From positions 3,780,001 through 3,812,000 of the forward strand of contig NC_003272.1 of NCBI RefSeq assembly GCF_000009705.1: a DNA stretch of 32,000 nucleotides. The letters run 5' to 3'. Made by a program: the position numbers and the translations under genes. The notes beneath the pieces were generated by a model that made no database searches, was not told the DNA's origin, and saw only the letters and a program-made list of their open reading frames with translations. Origin of the DNA: Nostoc sp. PCC 7120 = FACHB-418 (lineage in GTDB: Bacteria > Cyanobacteriota > Cyanobacteriia > Cyanobacteriales > Nostocaceae). This document shows, one piece after another, positions 3,426 through 32,000 of this stretch. Position 1 is the stretch's first letter, and each line of letters begins with the position of its first letter.

Positions 3426-3761
3426 TTAGGCGACACCGTAATCTGTATACTGACGTTTATAAGGAGCTTGCAAACCCAGGACAATATCTTCCCGTGGTAC
3501 TCCCATCATCACTAATTCCTCTGCTGGATTGCGATCAGTTAAATTCTGTTGTAGCCATATTTTTCCATCTTTAATATCAAAATGAATCACGCATCGATAA
3601 ATACGATTCAATCCTTGCCAACCTACATTCATCCATTGATAATGATTACGTTCTGTGTCTAAAATTAGTTGAACTTCAACATCTTGGTCTGAGACATCAT
3701 CACTGGCGTAGTTAGTCAACAATGTTTTAACTAATTCTTGATATTTTACTAATTTATCCAT
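3426..3761 (-). CDS. xisI: XisI family protein (fdxN-element excision controlling factor-like)
   Basis: 111 aa with the characteristic XisI sequence (ERNHYQWMNVGWQG..RIYRCVIHFDIKDGKIWLQQN). An AAGGAGG Shine-Dalgarno lies 10 nt upstream of the ATG. Confidence 0.9.
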   Translation of the reverse strand: MDKLVKYQELVKTLLTNYASDDVSDQDVEVQLILDTERNHYQWMNVGWQGLNRIYRCVIHFDIKDGKIWLQQNLTDRNPAEELVMMGVPREDIVLGLQAPYKRQYTDYGVA

Positions 3762-8157: not shown

Positions 8158-8552
8158 TCAAGGCTGAAAACGAAGGTGTTGAAGATATCGCACTTGAGTA
8201 ATGGTCTCGAAGTCACGATCATCATGGATCAAAAGTAAATTATTTTCCAGTGTCACTTGAGCAATACAGCAATCGATTGGACTACGAACGGTAAGCCCTT
8301 GGCGGCGCAAGTCGTAGTAGATACGTGCAGCCTCTCGCCACGAAGAAGGTGTTAGTTCAACGTAGTCTTGTGCTTCAAGATAAGTAGAGAGGAGAGTCCA
8401 CTCTTGCTCATTCAGACTACCTTGCAACAATTCAAGCTGGGTGAACCGAGTGAGTTCTGCCGATTCGCAACCAGGGTTTCAAGTTGCTGGCGAACTTGAC
8501 CACTACGATTACGGAAGACGCTGATCCATACAGATGTATCAATCAGCAACAT
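8158..8552 (-). pseudogene. vapC: PIN-domain toxin VapC, disrupted by a frameshift near 8457-8465
   Basis: The N-part MLLIDTSVWISVFR... (frame of 8412-8612) and the C-part ...(E)LTRFTQLELLQGSLNEQEW...IHDDRDFE (frame of 8158-8430) join into one PIN domain if a single base is restored in cggcag. Confidence 0.75.
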
Positions 8553-8751
8553 AACGAGTTTCACGTAGGGCTTTATAATCAAAATCTGGGGCAAATTGAA
8601 TCTGTCCCGCAAGGTCGAGAAGGTTTTTCTTACGGCGCGATCTCACGAATTCTTGTAGAGCAAGATTCATCAGTTCTTCTTGGGTGGTGAGGTTAGTCAG
8701 TTGAAAAGCTTCGTTGAGAAGCGATTCATCAAGGTTAAGGGTAATTTGCAT
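8539..8751 (-). CDS. vapB: Type II antitoxin VapB-like
   Basis: 70 aa, MQITLNLDESLLNEAFQLT..., with the ATG at 8751. Its 3' end overlaps the vapC start (8552) by 14 nt. Confidence 0.75.
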   Translation of the reverse strand: MQITLNLDESLLNEAFQLTNLTTQEELMNLALQEFVRSRRKKNLLDLAGQIQFAPDFDYKALRETRYVAD

Positions 8752-8967
8752 AGATATGGATATTGGATTGAAGTAGGCATAATTATTCTCTTTACATTTT
8801 AACCAAATAGATGACCAACCCACCTCTGGGCATATCTTTGTTAGTTGGCTGAAGTCTTATGTATCACTACCAATATCTCCCAACAGTCCGCTCCAGCCGG
8901 GTTGTTATGCGGCGATCGCCATTGACTAGCCACAGAACAAAGACAACCTTGAGACTCCAGTCCATAC

Positions 8968-9447
8968 TTAAAGCGCCTTAAAGTATCTAGCCACTGGGAA
9001 AAGCTCAAAACCTGCCTTCTCATAAGTGTGACGTGCTGGAGCATGACCAGGATCACCTGCCGTCTCAACCATCGCAATAGACATCCCAGCATCTTTCATC
9101 TGATCTAAAGCAAATTCTATCAAAGCGCTGCCAATGCCATGACCTTGAAAATCTGGATCGACAGCAACCATGTAGATTTCACCCATACTGTCTTCTGAGT
9201 GTAGTTTCATAGCGACAAAGCCCACAGTAGAGCCTTCATCGATCGCAACCCATACATTCGTGTCTTCCGCAGCACAGACATCCTCAACAGATTTTTGCTG
9301 ACTCACTTGCCATTGATTGGGATAGAACGCCTGATATACATCAGCATTCATAACGCTCTGAAGTGAATCAAAGACCGGAGTCCATGCCCGAAGCGAAAGC
9401 CGAACAACAGCCTCAAGATGATGGGGGGTGTATGCTTCAATGTGCAT
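8968..9447 (-). CDS. GNAT family N-acetyltransferase
   Basis: Acetyl-CoA binding motif VDPDFQGHGIGSALIEFAL. I prefer the ATG at 9447 over the TTG at 9483. Confidence 0.8.
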   Translation of the reverse strand: MHIEAYTPHHLEAVVRLSLRAWTPVFDSLQSVMNADVYQAFYPNQWQVSQQKSVEDVCAAEDTNVWVAIDEGSTVGFVAMKLHSEDSMGEIYMVAVDPDFQGHGIGSALIEFALDQMKDAGMSIAMVETAGDPGHAPARHTYEKAGFELFPVARYFKAL

Positions 9448-9586
9448 TTTGATGTCGCAACAAAAATCTGTGAACTTCGCCAAGCATAGTACAAAATACT
9501 ACAAAACAATATCGTCTAAATTTTGGATACTCACAGATAGCCTTTAAACTGCTACCCTACCCAGAATTGAGCCACATAACTATATT

Positions 9587-9611: not shown

Positions 9612-9836
9612 TTTTTGTCAATCCTAATATATCAAGCATTACAACGAACTCCTGTCTGAATATACGGAAAACTTCTTTTTTACATCCCTGCCTGGGTATT
9701 ATGCCAGATTTCTTCGTGATTTTTTATACCTATACTCATGTTCTGAATCGGGGTGGTAAGGCTGTGCGTAGCCCCCTTGATTAGAAATACTGGCATATAT
9801 TTTGCATGAATTTTGAACACCTAAAATGGTACAAAG

Positions 9837-9929
9837 TTAACACCCTAGCTCATAGCCATAACACCACACAGCAGGCAAGTGGATTGCTGATGGGTATTCT
9901 GCTTCATCTTCCACCAGTAAAATTCGCAT
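9837..9929 (-). pseudogene. 5' stub of an OmpR/CheY-type response regulator gene (30 codons, then a stop)
   Basis: The minus strand reads MRILLVEDEAEYPSAIHLPAVWCYGYELGC*. The MRILLVEDE...GYE pattern is the canonical receiver N-terminus, and nothing receiver-like follows. Confidence 0.6.
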
Positions 9930-9945
9930 CGCCTTAATGCAAGGG

Positions 9946-10554
9946 TTAAGCAATTACTTTGCTTTCATCACAAAGAGAAATAATTTGGTTTATAAAAGCT
10001 TTCAGTTCTGGACAAGCTTGAATGGCAACTATCAAATCATTTTTCTCCAAAATTTTTTTGCCATGAATGGGCTTGTTATAATCTTGCCTTCCTCCTGATT
10101 TGAAAATTTCTTTAAGATGGTAGGAAGGCGGTTGCTGGTGATTTACAGTTTCAGGAGAACCACTAGGAGCAGAGCGGTTATGTTTTGCTAAGGATTGGAT
10201 AGTTTTCCAGTACGGGAGGAGCCATGCTTCAAAGTCATGCAGTGCTGTGTGAGGATAAAATTTGGGGTTGTTACCAGCCCACTTCATCATTTGGGCTTTA
10301 GCATCAGCTGCATCTTGAAAATCTTTAGTTCCTGTATACACGTCTGTGAGAGCAATTACAGCATCATAAACACTATTACCGGTCAGTAAATTTTCAACTA
10401 CACGCCTGAGTTTTTCTTCTTTAGGAATTCGACCGTTTTGCGGAATAAACTTGAGCTTTGGCATTTGTTGTCCTAAACGAGTTTGGAGAAACTTACGTAG
10501 TTCTTCTCTAAAAGCTACCTCAGTAGCCCCTTCAACTAAGATGGCAATTTTCAT
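9946..10554 (-). CDS. DUF4276-like protein (putative TOPRIM-like partner of the upstream ATPase)
   Basis: 202 aa from the ATG at 10554: MKIAILVEGATEVAF..., VIALTDVY, HDFEAWLLPYW. The start overlaps the ATPase stop as ATGA. Confidence 0.7.
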   Translation of the reverse strand: MKIAILVEGATEVAFREELRKFLQTRLGQQMPKLKFIPQNGRIPKEEKLRRVVENLLTGNSVYDAVIALTDVYTGTKDFQDAADAKAQMMKWAGNNPKFYPHTALHDFEAWLLPYWKTIQSLAKHNRSAPSGSPETVNHQQPPSYHLKEIFKSGGRQDYNKPIHGKKILEKNDLIVAIQACPELKAFINQIISLCDESKVIA

Positions 10555-11696
10555 GGGCGACCACCCATTAAATTCATCGCCCAAACTTGATCAAGGCTGT
10601 AGTCTTCTAACCATTTATCTAAATCAAGCGTATCTGCCCAAGTCATTCTTGCCTCACCTTCCTCAAGATCACAAATTAAAACTTCATGTGGTTCAAGAAA
10701 CCTAATGAGTCGATCTGAATGGGTTGCTACTATAAGCTGTGTATATTTTGAAGCTTCTCTCATCCAATAAACTAAATGTCTCAAAAGCTCAGGATGCAAG
10801 CTAACTTCTGGCTCATCTAGTAAAGTAATTGTTGTTAAACTCTGGCTTTGTAAAAGGGTCACTAGCCAAAGGAAACGTAGCGTTCCTTCTGATAATTCAT
10901 GCACATATATGGGTTGAGAAAAGTTTCTGTCTGTCCAAGTCATGGAAATAGTTCCGGCGGCGACAGGAGGGAAGTTTAACCTCTCAAAATCTGGAAATGC
11001 TGTAGAAACAACATCCTCTACCATTTCAAAACGATCTCCATCTGTTTCCCGAAGATCATAGAGACAGGAAACTAAGTCTTCACCACTTGCACCAGGTAGC
11101 TTGGCAGGGCGCATTGGCTGAGGCAAGCGAATCGGGCTTTTCTCAGAAACATCAAGCGCTCCATAGTAAGTGCAAGAAGCAAGACTTTTTCTCAAGTTCT
11201 CAGGTTCACGATACATTTTAGGAACTTGAGAGAGTGATGTTTCAAGCGGATTATGTTCCCAATTTGGTCTTAAAAGCCCACTACCTTCCTGAAAATATTT
11301 GATATCTAATCCATGCGATTCAATATATTTAAACGGTTCAGACTTGTTTGGATTTCGTTGCTGTGTTAAAGTTTCGTTTCTAATTTCGTAAGATAGTCCT
11401 TTAGGAGACAAGGTTAAACCATACTTCAAAGGTTGCTCTTGTGGGACTCTCATGGAAACTTCAATTTCAAGCTCCTGCGCTTTGCCTCTGGTTAAAATCT
11501 CATTTAATCCACCTTTAGATTGCAACGTTTCTTGCAACTTGCCATTGGCTGAAGCAGCTAGTGTTGAAAGAACATCCAAAAACGAAGTTTTTCCTGCTCC
11601 ATTCGCCCCAATCATGACAATAAGATCTCTCATCTCAAGGTCAATTTGTCGAAAGCGGCGAAAGCCTCTCACTGATATATTTTCAAATCTGTCCAT
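10551..11696 (-). CDS. ABC/SMC-like ATPase of the AAA_21 type (OLD/AriA/PtuA/AbiLi-like)
   Basis: Walker A GANGAGKT, a long insertion, signature-like LSEGTLRF, Walker B ITLLDEPEVSLHP and H-loop VATHS. Confidence 0.8.
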   Translation of the reverse strand: MDRFENISVRGFRRFRQIDLEMRDLIVMIGANGAGKTSFLDVLSTLAASANGKLQETLQSKGGLNEILTRGKAQELEIEVSMRVPQEQPLKYGLTLSPKGLSYEIRNETLTQQRNPNKSEPFKYIESHGLDIKYFQEGSGLLRPNWEHNPLETSLSQVPKMYREPENLRKSLASCTYYGALDVSEKSPIRLPQPMRPAKLPGASGEDLVSCLYDLRETDGDRFEMVEDVVSTAFPDFERLNFPPVAAGTISMTWTDRNFSQPIYVHELSEGTLRFLWLVTLLQSQSLTTITLLDEPEVSLHPELLRHLVYWMREASKYTQLIVATHSDRLIRFLEPHEVLICDLEEGEARMTWADTLDLDKWLEDYSLDQVWAMNLMGGRP

Positions 11697-11746
11697 ACGG
11701 CTGTAATTACCAGTAAAAGTCGTCGAGCTTGCTTAGGCGATGAAGT

Positions 11747-11994
11747 CTATATCGTTCCTAGTATAGCAATAGACCACAGTTGTGCCATTTGAGCTTGTGT
11801 CTTATCCCCGTGCATCACTGCAAACTGGCTAAACTTTTCCCAGTCAGTTATTTTGGCTTTTGTTGTGTTGGGAAGATTCGGCTTGGATTGGTAGTCCCCT
11901 GTTTGAGCATACCTTTGTAGCCACAGATTTATAGTGTTGCGACTTCACCTCCACAGCCTTTACAAAAACATCTGCAATTGCACCTGGATTTCAT
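11747..11994 (-). mobile_element. IS630/Tc1-mariner family transposase remnant (N-terminal HTH part only, with a stop and a frameshift)
   Basis: The minus strand reads SRNTINLWLQRYAQTGDYQSKPNLPNTTKAKITDWEKFSQFAVMHGDKTQAQMAQLW..., matching cyanobacterial IS630 ORF N-termini. An in-frame TGA lies at 11945-11947 and no DDE domain follows. Confidence 0.65.
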
Positions 11995-12087: not shown

Positions 12088-12444
12088 GGATTTATTACCC
12101 TATTTGGCGTTGCTGTCCGCGATGGCTTGTTGTTGGTAGACAACTATAACAATAAGTTTGCTCAGGGAATGCTCCTTAAAGATGTGATTGTCAACGGTTC
12201 TCCGGAACGAGTGAACGCCATTCTGATGACCGCACTTACTTCCACACTAGGGATGCTGCCTTTGGCGATCGCTAGTGGGGCTGGAAATGAAATTCTACAA
12301 CTCTTAGCAATTGTCGTTTTAGGCGGTTTATTTACATCTACAGCTTTGACTTTATTAGTTATTCCAGCTCTCTACGCCAAATTTGGCAAACAATTAATGC
12401 CTCAACAGAAACCTGTTTTGATTAACCAAACCTGGTCAAACTAA
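12088..12444 (+). pseudogene. 3' fragment (about 118 codons) of a CzcA/CusA-type heavy-metal RND permease
   Basis: GFITLFGVAVRDGLLLVDNY...ERVNAILMTALTSTLGMLPLAIASGAGNEI...LTLLVIPALY is the conserved C-terminal TM11-12 region of ~1040-aa proteins. Similarity stops abruptly upstream of ~12088. Confidence 0.75.
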
Positions 12445-20070: not shown

Positions 20071-21417
20071 TTAAACAATCTTCCCGGCTTTACCAAACTC
20101 TCGCTTGATAGCGGCTTGCAAATCCTCTTGGTGAATCACGGTATCACCTCGCTTGAGGGTTTGCAGGCAGCAATACTGTACCACATTCATAATGTCGGCT
20201 CCACTCAGTTCATAGGTGGTTGCAAGTTCCCAGAGGTTGACTACCTCAGCTAGCTCGACCTGGAATGGAAAAGCCATTTGCCATATTTGCAATCGCTCTT
20301 TAGAACTGGGTAGGGGAAAATGAATTATTGCTTGAAAGCGACGGATAAAAGCGTCATCAATGTTGCTCTTGAAGTTAGAAGAGAGGATAACTAATCCATC
20401 GTAGTTTTCCACACGCTGTAATAGGTAACTAACTTCTTGGTTGGCGTATTTGTCGTGAGCATCACGCACATTTGTACGTTTGCTAAATAGAGCATCAGCC
20501 TCATCAAAGAATAAAATCCAATCTTTACTCTCAGCTTTAGCGAAGAGATTAGCCAAGTTTTTTTCGGTTTCACCAATAAACTTGGATACCACCATTGACA
20601 GGTCGATTTTGTAAACTTCTTTGTTTGTATACTTGCCTAGAAGACTAGCGGTGAGTGTTTTACCTGTACCAGGGGGGCCGTGAAATAAAGCCCGATAGCC
20701 TAGCTTAAGTTTTCTTTTCATTCCCCAATCATAAAGGATGGTGGAACCGTGGGTTATCCAGGCTTTGAGGTCATGAATCTGATCTAAGGTCTGTGTATTG
20801 AGTACTAAATCTTCCCATTCCATTTCTGTCGAGATGCGTTGAGCAGGAAAGTTGATACTGAATTGAGGGGAAGAAAAGTGACCTTGAGTAAACAAATCTA
20901 TATAGTCTTGGGTGATGATGAGTTTACCACTCATGAGAGGCTCACCATCGGCTGGTGGCTCTAGGTATAGCACTCGTTCACGGACAAACAGATGCTCATT
21001 ATGAAAGAGTTGCTGGAGACGAAAGCGATCGCTAAACTGATTTCCTGCCACTATAAATAGTATTGTCTCACCAGTGGGCAAAAATCCCCGATGGGACTTT
21101 CCCCGCCAACCGCCAATTTGGGGATAATCGCCTGCTTGCGGTAACTGGGAGGTGATGAGTTGATCAAAAAAATCTGCCTGTAAATGGGGTGCTAAGGCTA
21201 TCAACAGAGTCAGTTGTTCAGCAGTATTTAATTGATGCTTGCAGATAAATTGAGTTAGAGGTGTTTCTGCTGTTAATAAATCATGGGGTGGCTGAGGAAT
21301 GGTAATTGCTTGCTGTTCCTGATTGTGAAAAGATGAAGTGATCCGCCACTGAATCACCCTAGCAAGGTAATCAAGCGCATATTGCAGGGTTTGAGCATTT
21401 GCATCAAGCGTCATCAT
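20071..21417 (-). CDS. Classical-clade AAA+ ATPase with a ~230-aa N-terminal domain of unknown function
   Basis: Walker A GPPGTGKT, Walker B ILFFDEADALF, sensor-1 SSN and Arg finger region FIRRF. Confidence 0.85.
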   Translation of the reverse strand: MMTLDANAQTLQYALDYLARVIQWRITSSFHNQEQQAITIPQPPHDLLTAETPLTQFICKHQLNTAEQLTLLIALAPHLQADFFDQLITSQLPQAGDYPQIGGWRGKSHRGFLPTGETILFIVAGNQFSDRFRLQQLFHNEHLFVRERVLYLEPPADGEPLMSGKLIITQDYIDLFTQGHFSSPQFSINFPAQRISTEMEWEDLVLNTQTLDQIHDLKAWITHGSTILYDWGMKRKLKLGYRALFHGPPGTGKTLTASLLGKYTNKEVYKIDLSMVVSKFIGETEKNLANLFAKAESKDWILFFDEADALFSKRTNVRDAHDKYANQEVSYLLQRVENYDGLVILSSNFKSNIDDAFIRRFQAIIHFPLPSSKERLQIWQMAFPFQVELAEVVNLWELATTYELSGADIMNVVQYCCLQTLKRGDTVIHQEDLQAAIKREFGKAGKIV

Positions 21418-22178: not shown

Positions 22179-25100
22179 TCATCTATGACTAGTTGAGGGA
22201 ATTTTGTCATCATGGGCAGAATCTAGCGGTAGGTGTGGGGAATTGGGTCTAAAGCGATCGCGGATTTTACTAATCACGATGTACAGAATAGGCACAACAA
22301 ACAAACTCAATACAGTTGAGACAATCATTCCCCCCACCACGGCTGTACCGAGAGATTTTCTACTAGCTGCACCCGCGCCTATGGGATTGATTAATGGCCA
22401 GACACCAAGAATGAAAGATAGGGAAGTCATGAGAATAGGTCGCAACCTTTCTTGTGATGCTTGCACGGTGGCTTTGATAATTGGCAAACCCCCTTCGCGC
22501 AGTTGATTGGCAAATTCCACAATCAAAATGGCGTTTTTACTTGCCAAACCAATCAACATGACTAGACCTACTTGGCAAAATACGTCATTACTCAGACCCC
22601 GCAGCCACTGAGCCGATAAGGCTCCCAAAATAGCTAGGGGAACTGACAGCATAATAATTAATGGGTCAACGTAGTTCTCATATTGAGCTGCCAACACGAG
22701 AAAAACAAAGACTAAGCCTAGTCCAAAAATCAGGGGCGCTTGACCTCCTGATTCTTGTTCTTCCGCAGTTATCCCCGACCATTCGTAACCCATACTGGCG
22801 GGTAAAACTTCTTTTGCTAATTTTTCCATAGCTGTAGTTGCTTGACCAGAACTATAACCAGGCGCAGCCGCACCGTTGATGGTAATTGAACGGAATAGGT
22901 TGTAGTGGTTGATTGTTTGCGCTCCAGTCGCCGGAGTAATTGTCACTAGATTACTCAGGGAAATCATTTGATCGTTGGCAGAGCGGACATATAACTTACC
23001 AATATCCTCAGGGTTAGAACGGAATTGAGCATCTGCTTGTACGTAAACCCGGTAAGTTCTTTGTTGGAAATTAAAATCGTTGACGTACCTGGAACCCAAG
23101 TAAGATTGCAGAGTGTTAAATACTTCGTCTACATCAACTTGTAAAGCTTTGGCTTTGTTGCGGTCGATGTCAATTAACATCTGGGGTGTGTTAGCACTAA
23201 AAGTACTAAATACACCTTGTAAACCAGGAGTCTGATTACCGCGCATCATGATTTCTCCCATGACTTGCAGCAAATTTTCTAAGCCAGTGTTACCTGCTCT
23301 ATCTTGCAGTTCAAATTGAAAACCGCCGAAACTTCCTAAACCATCAATGGGTGGAGGACTAACGGGGAAAATTCTGGCTTCGGTGATGTTGGAGAAGACT
23401 CCTGCCAACTTACCAATAATTTCTGGTGCTGATTGTCCTGGTTGTTGGCGCTCATCCCAAGGCTGGAGAGTAGTAAAAATTACCCCACTGTTGGCACTGT
23501 TACCACTAAAACTAAAGCCACCAATGGCAAAAGTACCTGTAACTTCTGGCAATTTGAGGATTTCTTTTTCCACCTGAGCCATGACATTGCTGGTGTAGTT
23601 AAGAGAAACTCCTTCTGGCCCTTGGATGATCGTGATGAAATAGCCTTGGTCTTCTTCAGGAATAAATGCTGTGGGTACGCTGAGATAAACCCAGCCTGTT
23701 AAGGCTATAGAAGCGAGGAATAATAAGACAACGATCGCCCTAACCTTCACGAGAAAATTAAGCGATCGCTCATATCCCCGGCGCATCCAATCCAAAAACC
23801 TATTTACCTGGTGAAAAATCTTGCCTAACCAACCACGGGGGCGCTGTCCCCGACGTAGCAATAAGGCTGAAAGGGAAGGTGTGAGTGTCAGAGCCAAAAA
23901 GGTGGAGATGACCATCGAAAAGGCAATGGTCAGGGCAAACTGTTTATAAATCTGTCCTGTAGTACCTGGGAAGAAGGCAACGGGAACAAATACCGCCATC
24001 AACACTAAGGAAGTGGCAATTACAGCCCCAAATAGTTCCCGCATGGACTCGGATGCAGCCTGACGGGGTGACATTCCCTCTTGCTCAATTAACCGGGAGA
24101 TGTTTTCCACCACAATAATTGCATCGTCCACCACTAACCCCGTAGCTAATGTCAGACCAAACAAAGTTAAGGTGTTAATGGAAAATCCAAAAACCTTAAT
24201 AAAGGCAAAAGTCCCAATCAAAGTTAGGGGAATGGTAATTACCGGAATCAGGGTTGTACGCCAGTCCTGCAAGAAGATAAAAATTACCAAGACAACTAGA
24301 ATCAGCGCTTCTATCAATGTCTTGACCACTTCTGCAAGGGATTCCTCCACAAACAGGGTTGTATCAAACGCCACCTGATATTTCAACCCTGGAGGAAAGC
24401 TTTGCGCTAACCGAGCCATTTCGGTTTTCACTGCTTTGGATACTTCTAAGGCATTACTACCTGGGGTAGGGAATATCCCTATACCCACACCCTCATTACC
24501 TCGGAATCGCAGAAAAGAACTATAATTTTCCGCCCCTAATTCTGCCCGACCCACATCTTTGAGCTTGATGAGTGTGCCATCGCTTCCAGTCTTAATTACC
24601 ATGTCGGCAAATTCCGTTGCTTCGGAGAGTCTGCCGCGAGCCTGTAAGTCTATTTGATACATCTGGTCTGGTAGGGAAGGCTGCTGTCCGATTTGCCCCA
24701 CCCCTACCTGTATGTTTTGTTCGTTGATGGCATCAATCACATCTTGAGCCGTCAACTTGCGACTGGCTAGACGATTCGGGTCAAGCCACAATCGCATAGC
24801 ATAGCGCCGTTCACCAAAAATCCGCGCCTCGCCTACACCATCAAGCCTTTTCAGGGCATCTACTATATATTGGTCGGCGTAGTTACTTAAAAATACGGTG
24901 TTATATTCCTGTTGTTCGCTATACAGCCCCATCGCTAACAGGATATTGTTAGATTGTTTGCTGACTGTGACCCCAGTACGTTGTACAGCCTCTGGTAACT
25001 GGGGCTGGGCAATGGACACGCGGTTTTGGACATCAACGGCGGCAATATCTTTGTCCCGTGATGGGTCAAAGGTGATGGTAATAGTGCTAGTACCATCGTT

Positions 25101-25352
25101 ACTACTGCTAGATGTCATGTACTTCATACCTTGAACGCCATTGATTTGGCGCTCCAAGATATTTGTCACCGTATTTTCTACGACTTCCGCACTGGCTCCA
25201 GTATAGTTAGCATTAACAACAATTTGTGTGGGGCTAATTTCAGGATAGCGATCGGTAGGCAGCGTAGGTATACTGATTGCGCCTACTAGCAAAATGATAA
25301 TGGCGCAGACACTTGTAAATACAGGTCGCCTGATAAAGAAGTCAACAAACAT
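22179..25352 (-). CDS. RND efflux transporter permease (AcrB/HAE1-like)
   Basis: 1057 aa with the typical N-terminus MFVDFFIRRPVFTSV, a 12-TM architecture with two large periplasmic loops, and the GLVVDDAIVVVEN-type motif (GLVVDDAIIVVEN). Confidence 0.95.
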   Translation of the reverse strand: MFVDFFIRRPVFTSVCAIIILLVGAISIPTLPTDRYPEISPTQIVVNANYTGASAEVVENTVTNILERQINGVQGMKYMTSSSSNDGTSTITITFDPSRDKDIAAVDVQNRVSIAQPQLPEAVQRTGVTVSKQSNNILLAMGLYSEQQEYNTVFLSNYADQYIVDALKRLDGVGEARIFGERRYAMRLWLDPNRLASRKLTAQDVIDAINEQNIQVGVGQIGQQPSLPDQMYQIDLQARGRLSEATEFADMVIKTGSDGTLIKLKDVGRAELGAENYSSFLRFRGNEGVGIGIFPTPGSNALEVSKAVKTEMARLAQSFPPGLKYQVAFDTTLFVEESLAEVVKTLIEALILVVLVIFIFLQDWRTTLIPVITIPLTLIGTFAFIKVFGFSINTLTLFGLTLATGLVVDDAIIVVENISRLIEQEGMSPRQAASESMRELFGAVIATSLVLMAVFVPVAFFPGTTGQIYKQFALTIAFSMVISTFLALTLTPSLSALLLRRGQRPRGWLGKIFHQVNRFLDWMRRGYERSLNFLVKVRAIVVLLFLASIALTGWVYLSVPTAFIPEEDQGYFITIIQGPEGVSLNYTSNVMAQVEKEILKLPEVTGTFAIGGFSFSGNSANSGVIFTTLQPWDERQQPGQSAPEIIGKLAGVFSNITEARIFPVSPPPIDGLGSFGGFQFELQDRAGNTGLENLLQVMGEIMMRGNQTPGLQGVFSTFSANTPQMLIDIDRNKAKALQVDVDEVFNTLQSYLGSRYVNDFNFQQRTYRVYVQADAQFRSNPEDIGKLYVRSANDQMISLSNLVTITPATGAQTINHYNLFRSITINGAAAPGYSSGQATTAMEKLAKEVLPASMGYEWSGITAEEQESGGQAPLIFGLGLVFVFLVLAAQYENYVDPLIIMLSVPLAILGALSAQWLRGLSNDVFCQVGLVMLIGLASKNAILIVEFANQLREGGLPIIKATVQASQERLRPILMTSLSFILGVWPLINPIGAGAASRKSLGTAVVGGMIVSTVLSLFVVPILYIVISKIRDRFRPNSPHLPLDSAHDDKIPSTSHR

Positions 25353-28409: not shown

Positions 28410-30870
28410 ATGGTGACAGTATCTCAAAACACTTTGGCAAAATTTTCTCAAGAGGAATCGTTGGTTCTCTGGCTTGATAAAGTTGGCATTAAAGATATTG
28501 CCTTAGTGGGTGGTAAAAATGCCTCATTGGGGGAAATGATTCAACAACTGACACCCAAAGGCGTGAACGTACCGACAGGATTTGCTACTACTGCTTACGC
28601 TTATCGTTATTTCATCCAATCGGCTGGGTTAGAAGCCAAGTTACGGGAACTGTTTGCAGATTTAGATGTGGAGGATGTGAGAAATTTACAAGAACGGGGA
28701 CTCAAAGCCCGATCGCTCCTCATGCACACCCCATTTCCTTTAGAATTACAACAGGCGATCGCCTCTGCTTATGAAAGTTTGTGTAAGCAGTACAATCCTG
28801 ATACAGATGTCGCCGTCCGTTCCAGCGCTACCGCCGAAGACTTACCTGATGCGAGTTTTGCTGGACAACAAGAAACATATCTCAACGTAGTTGGTGCAGA
28901 AGCAGTATTAGCAGCTTGTCATAAATGCTTTGCTTCCCTATTTACAGACCGCGCCATTTCCTATCGCCATACTAAAGGATTTGATCACTTTAGCGTCGCC
29001 TTGGCTGTGGGTGTACAGAAAATGGTACGTTCTGACCTAGCCACCTCTGGGGTGATGTTCTCTATTGATACAGAAACAGGTTTTAAAGATGCAGCCTTAA
29101 TTACAGCCGCCTATGGTTTAGGCGAAAACGTTGTCCAAGGGACAGTTAATCCAGATGAATATTGTGTATTTAAGCCGACATTAAAAACAGGATTTAAACC
29201 AATTATTGATAAAAAATTGGGCAGTAAAGAATTAAGAATGGTCTATGATGAAGGCTCCCAATCTACTAAAAATGAACCAGTATCAATAGTAGAACAAAAT
29301 AAATTTGCTCTCAGTGACGCAGATATTTTACAACTAGCTCATTGGGCTTGTTTAATTGAAGACCATTATTCTCAAGCCCACGGTAGTTACACCCCAATGG
29401 ATATTGAATGGGCAAAAGATGGCATTACCAACCAACTTTTTGTAGTGCAAGCCCGTCCAGAAACGGTGCAGTCCCAGAAGAATGGGAATGTGTTGCGGAG
29501 TTATCGGTTGGGGCTGGGGACTGGGGAGAAAACGCAGAATTTATCACTCATCCCCCTAGTCACTGGACGCGCCATTGGTGAAGCGATTAGCCAAGGGAAA
29601 GCGCGGGTAATTTTAGATGCCAAACAAATAGAAGAATTTCAGGCTGGGGAGGTGCTGGTGACAGAGAGAACTGACCCTGATTGGGAACCAATTATGAAAC
29701 GTGCCAGTGCAATTATTACCAATTCTGGTGGTCGTACTTGTCATGCGGCCATTATCGCACGGGAATTGGGTGTGCCGGCGATCGTTGGTTGTGGTAAAGC
29801 CACGCAAGTATTAACAACTGGTCAAGAGGTGACGGTTTCTTGTGCGGAGGGTGAAGAAGGTAAAGTCTATCCTGGGTTATTACCTTTTCAAGTGAAAGAA
29901 GTTCTCTTAGAAAACTTACCCCGCACCCATACCCAAATCTTGATGAATGTGGGTAATCCCCAAGAAGCGTTTAGTTTATCGGCAATTCCTAATGATGGTG
30001 TTGGTTTAGCCAGGACGGAGTTTATCATTGCTAACCAAATCCAAGTCCATCCCTTGGCGTTGATTCACTACGACAATTTAGCGGATGCAGAACAAAAAGC
30101 CAAAGTTGCGGCTATCACCGCCATGTATGACGATAAACCCCAATATTTTGTAGATAAATTAGCCCAAGGTGTGGGCAGAATTGCCGCCGCCTTTTATCCC
30201 AAACCTGTGATTGTGCGAATGTCCGATTTTAAGAGTAATGAATATCGCAACCTTGCAGGGGGTTCCCAATTTGAACCAGATGAAGAAAACCCGATGCTGG
30301 GCTGGCGGGGGGGCTGCACGTTATTACGATCCAGGTTATAGAGAAGGTTTTGCTTTAGAATGCCATGCTATCAAGCGGGTGCGGGATGAAATGGGGTTAA
30401 CTAACGTTATTCCCATGATTCCTTTCTGTCGCACACCAGAGGAGGGACGTTTGGTTTTAGCAGAGATGGCGAAACATGGTTTAAAGCAAGGTGTTAACGA
30501 CTTGCAGGTTTATGTAATGTGCGAGTTACCAAGTAACGTCATCTTGGCCGAACAGTTTGCAGAGGTGTTCGACGGTTTCTCCATTGGTTCCAACGACCTG
30601 ACTCAGCTGACACTAGGATTAGATAGAGATTCAGCTTTAGTCGCTCGACTATTTGACGAACGTAGCCCAGCTGTGAAACAAATGGTGAAAATGGCGATCG
30701 CCTCTGCAAAAAAACAACGCCGCAAAATCGGCATCTGTGGGCAAGCACCAAGCGATTACCCGGAATTTGCCCAGTTTTTGGTAGAAGAAGGAATTGATTC
30801 TATTAGTCTCAATCCCGACTCTGTATTAAAAACGATGCTGGAAATAGCTAAGGTGGAACAGCAAAGCTGA
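28410..30870 (+). pseudogene. ppsA: Phosphoenolpyruvate synthase PpsA, interrupted by a +1 frameshift in a G7 run (30307-30313)
   Basis: The ATP-grasp N-domain (GGKNASLGEM), the phosphohistidine domain (GGRTCHAAIIARELG) and the PEP-utilising C-domain are split across two frames. Removing one G restores ...[23 protein letters not shown]... (819 aa). GGGAGG SD precedes the ATG at 28410. Confidence 0.9.
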
Positions 30871-30972: not shown

Positions 30973-31299
30973 TTACATCCTAGCCAAGGCTGACACTTTG
31001 GAAAGCTTGTCTTTAGATAACCCTTCCAGTTCGTTGACATGAAGCCAGCCGTCTTTGACTAACCCAGCAAAGACAAACAACAGAGCCGAGTATTGGTAGT
31101 CATACTTGCCCTCGATTTCATGCCTTCTAGCACTCAAGAAATCGTGTAATTGCCAAAGCTCGTCCAACTCTACAAGTGTGCTGGCTTCTTTTTGAACCTG
31201 TTTGAGCAAAGCCTCAATCTCTCGTTTGTAGGCTTGATCAAAGGCTGTTCGAGCTATCGTCTTTTCAATATCACTCCACTCGGCTTCACTCACGTACAT
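30973..31299 (-). CDS. frp: Fluorescence recovery protein (FRP)
   Basis: 108 aa. WSDIEKT..FDQAYKREIEALLKQVQ..LWQLHDFLSARRHEIEGKYDYQYS..FVFAGLVKDGW..SKVSALARM parallels Synechocystis FRP (Slr1964). It lies directly downstream of ocp. Confidence 0.85.
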   Translation of the reverse strand: MYVSEAEWSDIEKTIARTAFDQAYKREIEALLKQVQKEASTLVELDELWQLHDFLSARRHEIEGKYDYQYSALLFVFAGLVKDGWLHVNELEGLSKDKLSKVSALARM

Positions 31300-31414: not shown

Positions 31415-32000
31415 TTAGCGAACCAAGTTCAAAAGTTCTTTGGGAGAGGCTAACAAGTCAATAGCTACGAAGAAGATTTTACCTTGGGGGTTGAGCAAGA
31501 AGCGCCAAGCCATGTTCATCCCTACTGCTGCACCAAACCAAGGGGTCTGAACTTTACCTGTCACTTTCACCTGAGTATAGCCATCGTCTGCGGGTTCAGC
31601 CACACCGCGCTCTGGAAGCAAGTTGAGGTTCTGGCATTCTTCACGGAAGAACCGCAGAATTGCATCCTTACCAACGATTGGTCTTTGGAAGGGAGGCTGC
31701 AAAGCTCCATCCTCCACGAACAACTTGATCAGTTCATCAAAGTCATTGGCGTTCAAGTTGTTCATGTAATTCAACACAGTGGAATTATTAATTCCCTCAA
31801 TGGTGACTTGAACACGCTGGGAAATATCTTTAGGTGCAACTAATGGTTCAGCAACTCTTGTGTAGCCGTCTAGTTTAGCTGCATCAAATCCCATATCTAC
31901 AACGGAACTGCGGAGGACGGTAATCTGTTGTCCTTGATCCAGACTTTTCAGGGTTTCCAATACTGCATTAGCATTGGCTGAAAGCTGATAGCCAGCAGGA
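31415..32000 (-). CDS. ocp: Orange carotenoid protein (OCP), C-terminal NTF2-like domain and linker; 5' end outside the window
   Basis: NSTVLNYMNNLNANDFDELIKLFVEDGALQPPFQRPIVGKDAILRFFREEC...WFGAAVGMNMAWRFLLNPQGKIFFVAIDLLASPKELL. The frame stays open beyond position 32000. Confidence 0.9.
   Translation of the reverse strand, partial: PAGYQLSANANAVLETLKSLDQGQQITVLRSSVVDMGFDAAKLDGYTRVAEPLVAPKDISQRVQVTIEGINNSTVLNYMNNLNANDFDELIKLFVEDGALQPPFQRPIVGKDAILRFFREECQNLNLLPERGVAEPADDGYTQVKVTGKVQTPWFGAAVGMNMAWRFLLNPQGKIFFVAIDLLASPKELLNLVR

Follow-up and report, generated by a model that had tools for sequence, protein, structure and literature searches.

An ABC ATPase and DUF4276 gene pair of Nostoc sp. 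PCC 7120 as a cyanobacterial member of the candidate defence system HEC-01

What is the function of a compact unit of two overlapping genes, one for an ABC-type ATPase and one for a small DUF4276 protein, in the chromosome of a cyanobacterium, and is it a new kind of defence module or one that already has a name? The question is raised by a stretch of 32,000 nucleotides (nt) from Nostoc sp. PCC 7120 = FACHB-418 (NCBI RefSeq assembly GCF_000009705.1, contig NC_003272.1, positions 3,780,001 to 3,812,000 of the forward strand), hereafter the window, in which the pair occupies positions 9,946 to 11,696. An initial annotation, made from the letters alone, had described it as a candidate uncharacterised module in the style of OLD, PARIS or AbiL, with a DUF4276 component of no experimentally defined function. 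We find that the locus is not a new system but belongs, as a cyanobacterial member, to the candidate system HEC-01, which already has a name, and favour, with reasonable but not strong confidence, its interpretation as a HEC-01 candidate defence pair in which an ABC ATPase is translationally coupled to an OLD-like TOPRIM nuclease of the DUF4276 family.

Identity of the pair and coupling of its genes

Profile searches of Pfam and PADLOC, which the initial annotation had proposed, identify both proteins. The ATPase matches the PADLOC HEC-01A model PDLC04175 with an E-value of 4.1e-70 (234.7 bits, residues 3-381 on profile positions 5-362 of 363), and the small protein matches the HEC-01B model PDLC04188 over its full length (3.7e-18). 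Among Pfam families, the ATPase matches AAA_21 over its full length (7.6e-54, profile 1-303 of 304) and AAA_15 (4.6e-21), and the 202-amino acid (aa) protein matches DUF4276, again over the full length (1.1e-34, profile 1-191 of 192). HEC-01 is a member of the “Hma-embedded candidates”, composed of an ABC ATPase together with a TOPRIM protein that, in its predicted structure, has the metal-binding site of Burkholderia pseudomallei (Bp) OLD (Payne et al., bioRxiv 10.1101/2024.01.29.577857). With both proteins matching HEC-01A and HEC-01B, the locus is not an unnamed one, and HEC-01 has been tested twice, once with a negative and once with a positive outcome.

The HEC-01 prototype, from Pseudomonas agarici, consists of WP_060782633.1, an AAA family ATPase (2005165..2006352), and WP_060782632.1, a DUF4276 family protein (2004590..2005168) (bioRxiv 10.1101/2024.01.29.577857, supplementary table). 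These coordinates imply the same arrangement as in the window, an ABC ATPase gene followed on the same strand by the DUF4276/TOPRIM gene with a 4-base start/stop overlap, and acidic residues of the two small proteins align (window/prototype E8/E10, D71/D66, D107xE109/E101xE103). The prototype is, however, only distantly related to the window pair: the two ATPases are 23% identical along 347 residues (E 1e-22), and the profile of the window DUF4276 subfamily aligns with the prototype protein over its full length at about 18% identity, with an hhalign probability of 50% (E 1.6e-4). The prototype has the classical DQD where the window clade has D-V-Y at the same motif, and the window pair, unlike the prototype, is part of a cyanobacterial clade that has a highly conserved cassette of its own, 1.85 kb long. 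HEC-01 was discovered inside an Hma (helicase-methylase-ATPase) system, whereas the window pair has neither helicase nor methylase neighbours; Hma embedding is the discovery context of HEC-01 and not a rule for its detection.

The two intact minus-strand genes and the ATGA shared by the stop of one and the start of the other are as first described (Table 1), a TTG-extended version of the DUF4276 open reading frame (ORF) reaching position 10584. Eighty related loci were retained for analyses of pairing, junction and neighbours. In every one of them the ATPase gene immediately precedes the DUF4276 gene, and their adjacency is therefore beyond chance; 74 of the junctions have the sequence ATGA and the other six GTGA. 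A GGNGG motif 8-12 nt 5′ of the DUF4276 start is kept in nearly all 80 loci, and its counterpart in the window, GGGTGG, is a putative ribosome-binding site, although the Gly-Gly codons that it overlaps could alone explain its conservation. The 4-base overlap favours coupled expression of the two genes and so supports the coupled translation proposed at the outset, but not the fixed stoichiometry proposed with it, which an overlap does not demonstrate.

All four ATPase motifs named in the initial annotation (GANGAGKT, LSEGTLRF, ITLLDEPE and ATHS) are present, and the insert between the Walker A and signature motifs measures about 230 aa, close to the 240 or so first given. Across 43 homologues, residues K36, Q112, S269-G271, D294 and E295 do not vary and H326 is kept in at least 90%, a pattern that fits an active, dimerisation-dependent ABC ATPase as far as residue conservation can tell. 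Of the proteins with solved structures, PtuA, GajA, Ts OLD and AriA come nearest in sequence, with only their Walker A or signature/Walker B segments aligning, and none of the PDB sequences searched is a close relative. These neighbours agree with the AAA_21 and AAA_15 matches in placing the protein in the ABC ATPase type of OLD, GajA, PtuA and AriA, as had been suggested.

The DUF4276 partner and related ABC ATPase and TOPRIM systems

The DUF4276 protein carries the motifs KIAILVEGATE (from aa 2), ALTD (aa 68) and HDFEAWLL (aa 106), by which the family had correctly been recognised. Its AlphaFold2 model, built with 43 homologues, is confident (predicted local distance difference test score, pLDDT, 88.6; predicted template modelling score, pTM, 0.85) and consists of a beta-alpha-beta-alpha-beta-alpha-beta core (strands 2-7, 33-38, 65-71 and 99-104) followed by a helical region (108-195). 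In a Foldseek search of the PDB, the top five matches of the model are the C-terminal TOPRIM regions of the OLD proteins of B. pseudomallei and Xanthomonas campestris (Xcc) (6nk8, 6njv, 6njx and 6njw; E 1.2e-4 to 3.1e-4, probability 1.00, template modelling (TM) score 0.39-0.52), and the remaining ones are far weaker (E at least 2.5e-3), unrelated and mostly of lower probability. Among viral predicted structures the sole significant match is an RloB-like protein (E 7.5e-4, TM 0.50). At the sequence level, no Toprim or Toprim_Old family of Pfam matches the protein at E up to 1, and the DUF4276 alignment, run as a profile against PDB sequences, returned five unrelated matches at chance level (E at least 0.35) and no OLD or TOPRIM protein. 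The TOPRIM assignment of the window protein therefore comes from the structural match and not from sequence, and it bears out, by the structure prediction and Foldseek search suggested for the purpose, the earlier proposal of a TOPRIM-like small partner in a split OLD-like architecture.

Among 1.84 billion representative proteins, 452 were related to the DUF4276 protein at E <= 1e-3. In 36 full-length relatives (28-55% identity), E8, G9, E12, D71 and C181 are invariant and E109, E135 and K161 nearly so. The Bp OLD site is made up of E400 and E404, D455 and D457, T506 and E508, and K562 (PMC6755086). By fold position and spacing only, rather than from an inspected three-dimensional superposition, E8/E12 would correspond to E400/E404, D71 to D455, D107-x-E109 to T506-x-E508, and K161, in the helical part, to K562; the 4-residue and 2-residue spacings are equal in the two sites, and the window protein thus parallels the E...E, D, (D)xE, K pattern of the two-metal site of Bp OLD. 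By analogy with OLD, we infer that the DUF4276 protein is a TOPRIM-fold, OLD-like, predicted metal-dependent nuclease. The first account of the family is outdated as far as its classification goes: the Menshen study placed DUF4276 and RloB in the Toprim superfamily and called Mad4 of MADS a DUF4276 homologue, and DUF4276 has been linked to MADS Mad4 and Menshen NsnC.

Several known systems combine an ABC ATPase with a TOPRIM protein, and the locus differs from each of them. In the OLD family (P2 Old and Ts OLD of class 1, Bp and Xcc OLD of class 2, and GajA of Gabija), ATPase and TOPRIM nuclease are joined in one polypeptide, whereas the window pair is made of two ORFs; its DUF4276 protein, moreover, lacks the Toprim/Toprim_Old profile match and the second Asp of the DxD motif, and resembles the OLD structures only at the modest TM scores given above. 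With its genes split and the profile match absent, the locus was rejected as OLD proper; it also has no UvrD-like helicase partner. PARIS, like the window pair, is a two-gene system, with an ABC ATPase of the AAA_15/21 group, AriA, and a separate TOPRIM effector, and it offers the best-understood mechanistic model, in which a phage protein is sensed and the ATPase scaffold frees the TOPRIM nuclease. Its effector AriB, however, is a DUF4435 protein, and neither DUF4435 in Pfam nor AriB in PADLOC matches the 202-aa protein at E up to 1; the ATPase of the window is shorter (381 aa, against 464 aa in AriA chains); and PARIS is frequently found on phages and satellites, whereas the window clade was not found in phage and viral collections. 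The AriA profile PDLC02980 does match the ATPase (1.3e-42), but the length and aligned range of this match mirror those of the generic AAA_21 and the HEC-01A models score far higher, and the match to AriA of the PDB (4.3e-4) covers the signature/Walker B region only. A PARIS assignment was rejected for want of DUF4435 in the effector.

AbiL (AbiLi with the RloB-like AbiLii) and Mad3/Mad4 of MADS likewise pair an ABC ATPase with a small partner of the TOPRIM superfamily, and the PARIS paper counted AbiL and MADS3-4 among the ABC ATPase and TOPRIM systems. The mad3 and AbiLi models match the ATPase more weakly than HEC-01A, the NCBIfam model antiphage_MADS3 reaches 88.7 bits where its cut-off is 420, and none of the Mad4, RloB and AbiLii models of Pfam and PADLOC matches the small protein; nor was a methyltransferase or other MADS gene found in the window. 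AbiL was accordingly rejected because the RloB match is absent, and MADS because MADS3 falls under its cut-off and both Mad4 match and methylase are missing. The MANTIS preprint merely cites MADS and is unrelated to the window pair.

The cassette, its relatives and its surroundings

Nucleotide similarity to relatives in unrelated contexts delimits a cassette of about 1.85 kb that comprises the two genes, a conserved upstream leader and a short conserved 3′ tail (Table 1). It is 97.2% identical to its counterpart in Anabaena sp. CCY 9910 over exactly 9928-11773, although it is flanked there by nif and cytochrome bd genes that have no relation to the flanks in the window, and 90-92% identical over 9929-11765 to loci of other cyanobacterial orders; in none of the 80 loci is there flank synteny with the window. 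Within the leader, a -10-like TGcTATACT has its end at 11760, with the matching -35-like hexamer (start 11788) falling in non-conserved DNA, and the sites returned by a promoter and terminator scan, the promoter-like site 11788..11760 included, are no more numerous than in shuffled sequence. No conserved third gene accompanies the pair among the 80 loci, the recurrent neighbours reflecting synteny among Microcoleus genomes.

Homologues of each protein number in the thousands, and the best 120 come from many cyanobacterial orders, with 73-95% identity for DUF4276 and 81-95% for the ATPase. Close relatives, to which the scan was limited, number 191 among 185,579 species genomes (one genome per species), and copies outside the cyanobacteria occur in Chloroflexota (Litorilinea), Planctomycetota (Schlesneria) and contigs of Deinococcales. 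Ratios of non-synonymous to synonymous substitution rates (dN/dS) are 0.03-0.11 for the ATPase and 0.09-0.26 for DUF4276, and both genes are under purifying selection. The cassette has spread horizontally, as a self-contained unit of about 1.85 kb, across cyanobacterial orders and into other phyla. It is also a mosaic (9968-11765, compared with related loci L005, L010, L012 and L002-L006): copies in Thermoleptolyngbya, Coleofasciculaceae and an unclassified cyanobacterial metagenome-assembled genome match the ATPase gene and the final 220 nt or so of the DUF4276 gene at 90-98% identity, while the initial 350 nt or so of the latter gene, which encode the TOPRIM core, are only 74-79% identical to L010 and L012, 86-92% to L005 and 90-95% to Nostocales copies. 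This pattern of identities indicates recombination between variants, near 10600 and near 10200.

The wider window is ordinary cyanobacterial chromosome, with genes for a sensor kinase, CcdA/ResB, XisI, haem oxygenase, HemN, a pyruvyl transferase, the CCA-adding enzyme, TsaB, SurE, an AAA+ ATPase, a full AcrB with a membrane-fusion protein, phosphoenolpyruvate (PEP) synthase, fluorescence recovery protein and orange carotenoid protein; scans for tRNA genes and Rfam families found nothing in it. Its XisI, fluorescence recovery protein and orange carotenoid protein genes, together with matches of 95-97% to Anabaena sp. CCY 9910, are marks of a filamentous, Nostocales-like cyanobacterium. Within it, the pair sits in a small decayed patch. 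The block of gene wrecks depicted in the initial annotation is real in so far as VapC is split, consistent with a frameshift, and AcrB, IS630-like and response-regulator fragments are present, but the pair is not its sole intact unit, since the GNAT acetyltransferase and VapB genes look intact. The inference of a defence island fails for the window itself and holds only in the lineages of some relatives. In some Pseudanabaena loci, the HEC-01 pair adjoins a PDC-M29-like ATPase with its partner, or a PtuB-like HNH gene, an arrangement that is a lineage-specific mini defence cluster. At locus L021 (10646-12529, minus strand) an AriA/PDC-M29A-like ABC ATPase of 465 aa and a small PDC-M29B-like protein lie tail-to-tail with the HEC-01 pair, and at L036 (11223-11693, minus strand) a PtuB-like HNH protein adjoins it.

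The insertion sequence (IS)-like remnant just upstream, a piece of 40 aa without a Pfam match, has replaced the distal 95 bp or so of an upstream region still common to four relatives. The 5′-truncated AcrB fragment on the same side might have been copied from the complete AcrB gene of the window (22179-25352), an origin that was rejected because the two have only 38.6% protein identity and no DNA match. A 5′-truncated AcrB-family fragment also diverges from the upstream end of the pair in Anabaena sp. CCY 9910 (locus L081, 8619-8876, minus strand), as in the window; it is a segment of the N-terminal region, and no homology is detectable between the two fragments, which come from different parts of AcrB. 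Their presence beside both pairs may be fortuitous or may go back to an ancestral insertion into an AcrB gene, of which they would be the remains. Farther away, a PEP synthase/pyruvate phosphate dikinase-like gene is split into two overlapping ORFs (28410-30870, plus strand), which suggests a frameshift or a sequencing error, and a 448-aa AAA+ ATPase (20071-21417, minus strand) matches the IetA models of PADLOC (1.9e-32) over nothing but its ATPase core; none of the genes next to it was identified as an IetS-like protease partner, and the match is probably a generic AAA+ one.

Table 1. Positions in the window of the gene pair, its sequence elements and other features.
Feature	Position	Strand	Remarks
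HEC-01A-type ABC ATPase gene	10551..11696	minus	381 aa, ATG start, intact ORF
HEC-01B-type DUF4276 gene	9946..10554	minus	202 aa from ATG at 10554, intact ORF
ATGA overlap	10551..10554	minus	ATPase stop TGA (10553-10551) over DUF4276 ATG (10554-10552)
Shine-Dalgarno-like GGGTGG	10561..10566	minus	7-12 nt 5′ of DUF4276 ATG, within last Gly-Gly codons of ATPase
Whole conserved two-gene cassette (~1.85 kb)	9928..11773	minus	From nucleotide similarity to relatives in unrelated contexts
Conserved upstream leader	11697..11773	minus	Similarity to relatives ends at 11765-11773
Conserved 3′ tail	9928..9945	minus	TAA then CCCTTGCATTAAGG; similarity to relatives stops at 9928-9932
Walker A GANGAGKT	11586-11609	minus	ATPase aa 30-37
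Signature LSEGTLRF	10872-10895	minus	ATPase aa 268-275
Walker B ITLLDEPE	10806-10829	minus	ATPase aa 290-297
H-loop ATHS	10716-10727	minus	ATPase aa 324-327
Candidate metal-site/catalytic residues	E8 10531-10533, E12 10519-10521, D71 10342-10344	minus	DUF4276 protein
Candidate metal-site/catalytic residues	D107 10234-10236, E109 10228-10230, K161 10072-10074	minus	DUF4276 protein
IS630-like transposase fragment (TDWEKFSQFAVMHGDKTQAQMAQLW)	~11780-11860	minus	By eye, six-frame translation; just upstream of cassette
Response-regulator N-terminus MRILLVEDEAE...	~9830-9931	minus	By eye; starts 15 nt past DUF4276 stop
AcrB C-terminal fragment (~86 aa), 5′-truncated	12127-12444	plus	
GNAT acetyltransferase, looks intact	8968-9483		
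VapB, looks intact	8539-8823	minus	
VapC (PIN domain), split into two overlapping ORFs	8412-8612 and 8158-8430	minus	
XisI	3426-3761	minus	
PEP synthase ORF 1	28410-30341	plus	PPDK_N, PEP-utilizers, part of PEP-utilizers_C
PEP synthase ORF 2	30211-30870	plus	Rest of PEP-utilizers_C
Fluorescence recovery protein (FRP)	30973-31299	minus	
Orange carotenoid protein (OCP), C-terminal part	31415-31960	minus	

Possible mode of action, alternatives and implications

How such a pair might act can be sketched from its better-studied relatives, and the interaction of the two proteins, the nuclease activity with its substrate and trigger, and the role in defence are all drawn here by analogy. As in OLD, Gabija and PARIS, the ATPase may dimerise or oligomerise through an ATP sandwich and serve as a sensor or regulator that holds or otherwise controls the TOPRIM partner. 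On meeting an invading phage or mobile element, it would license the nuclease to cut nucleic acid, which might be foreign DNA directly or, in an abortive-infection mode, host or phage RNA such as tRNA. That PARIS, AbiL, MADS3-4, OLD and Gabija are related ABC ATPase and TOPRIM defence systems would speak for defence. As to HEC-01 itself, a randomly chosen representative was reported to protect Escherichia coli B against at least one of phages T4, T5 and T7 in a cold-seep study, and HEC-01 ranks there among the 12 most abundant system types of the survey.

A number of observations weigh against the interpretation as a defence nuclease pair. The HEC-01 prototype protected against none of the tested coliphages (bioRxiv 10.1101/2024.01.29.577857), and the cold-seep representative differs from the window pair, no effect size for HEC-01 being found in that text. 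A defence gene would not usually be as conserved as this (73-95% across orders). The window itself yielded no further defence system, and the immediate neighbours in about 60 loci (150 non-redundant) are mostly unrelated housekeeping genes, with scattered matches to Uma2/PDC-S03, TnpB-like, mad3/mad6, Csx1 and SLATT proteins, all of these being raw Pfam and PADLOC matches read without a control set. A tblastn search with DUF4276 of 50,697 phage and 72,556 plasmid records and a pattern scan of IMG/VR, which reach fairly close relatives, found none. On the structural side, the AlphaFold2 model of the ATPase, built from 43 homologues that are 81-95% identical, is unusable (pLDDT 43.7), and the correspondence with OLD residues carries the reservation made above about how it was set. 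In the cyanobacterial clade the DxD motif of TOPRIM lacks its second Asp (D71-V-Y73), a position that varies in the wider subfamily; this loss is by itself no argument against activity, because single substitutions of metal ligands in Bp OLD, D457A included, left cleavage without discernible change (PMC6755086).

Part of this evidence could be accommodated by a selfish addiction cassette, akin to toxin–antitoxin modules, in which a putative TOPRIM toxin would be restrained by the ATPase and loss of the pair would be harmful without any protection from phage. The compactness of a self-contained 1.85-kb unit that moves horizontally among unrelated contexts, the tight coupling of its genes, the failure of the HEC-01 prototype to defend, the lack of clear enrichment of defence genes among the neighbours (assessed without a control set) and the decayed VapBC pair nearby in the window are all as such a cassette would have them. 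Yet another HEC-01 representative was reported to be phage-protective, and the cassette did not turn up in the plasmid collection, although addiction modules are common on plasmids; many abortive-infection systems are, besides, formally toxin–antitoxin-like, so that this explanation overlaps with the one we prefer. We consider addiction without defence unlikely, if worth keeping in mind.

Strong purifying selection, high conservation across cyanobacterial orders and the housekeeping genes around the pair might instead recall a cellular factor for DNA repair, replication or the cell cycle, for which the ABC ATPase RecF with the TOPRIM protein RecR, and archaeal Cran1, are precedents; Cran1 is an OLD-family ATPase that is reported to act in archaeal cell-cycle progression and not in defence (PMC12796447). 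A distribution as patchy as that of the relatives counted above, with flanks that differ in every lineage, transfer between phyla, mosaic recombination, and a cassette lodged in a decayed, variable patch where an IS-like remnant cuts its upstream region, is patchy and mobile in the manner of an accessory rather than a core gene, and a cellular role is for that reason very improbable. Some sources label homologues “ABC transport protein, ATP-binding subunit”, and there is a weak ABC_tran match in Pfam (residues 19-95); an ATP-binding subunit of a transporter, with the small protein as an unrelated neighbour, is nevertheless effectively refuted by domain architecture and conserved pairing, given that ABC_tran covers the Walker A region only whereas AAA_21 spans the full length, that the long insert separates Walker A from the signature, that no membrane or substrate-binding partner is conserved, and that DUF4276 accompanies the ATPase strictly in 80/80 loci.

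If the HEC-01 candidate defence pair is accepted as the preferred interpretation, a more specific and decidedly speculative possibility, to which we give little credence, is that the cyanobacterial clade is a functionally distinct HEC-01 variant that works like PARIS, its ATPase scaffold freeing an RNA- or tRNA-targeting TOPRIM nuclease upon sensing a cyanophage protein. The features behind it are D-V-Y in place of DxD, the invariant Cys181, sequences that are unusually strongly conserved, a TOPRIM core that variants have exchanged, and passage from phylum to phylum as two bare genes, 1.85 kb in all, without a recombinase. If true, it would account for the null result of the DNA-nuclease-style prototype in E. 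coli.

The window pair adds no principle beyond the known theme of an ABC ATPase with a TOPRIM protein, as embodied by OLD, Gabija, PARIS, AbiL and MADS3-4. The experimental evidence on HEC-01 is conflicting, with one negative and one positive test, and the cyanobacterial clade is a well-defined and strongly conserved test case of whether modules of ABC ATPase and DUF4276 defend, and of what their TOPRIM partner cuts, with clear targets for point mutation in K36 and E295 of the ATPase and in E8, D71, E109 and K161 of the DUF4276 protein.

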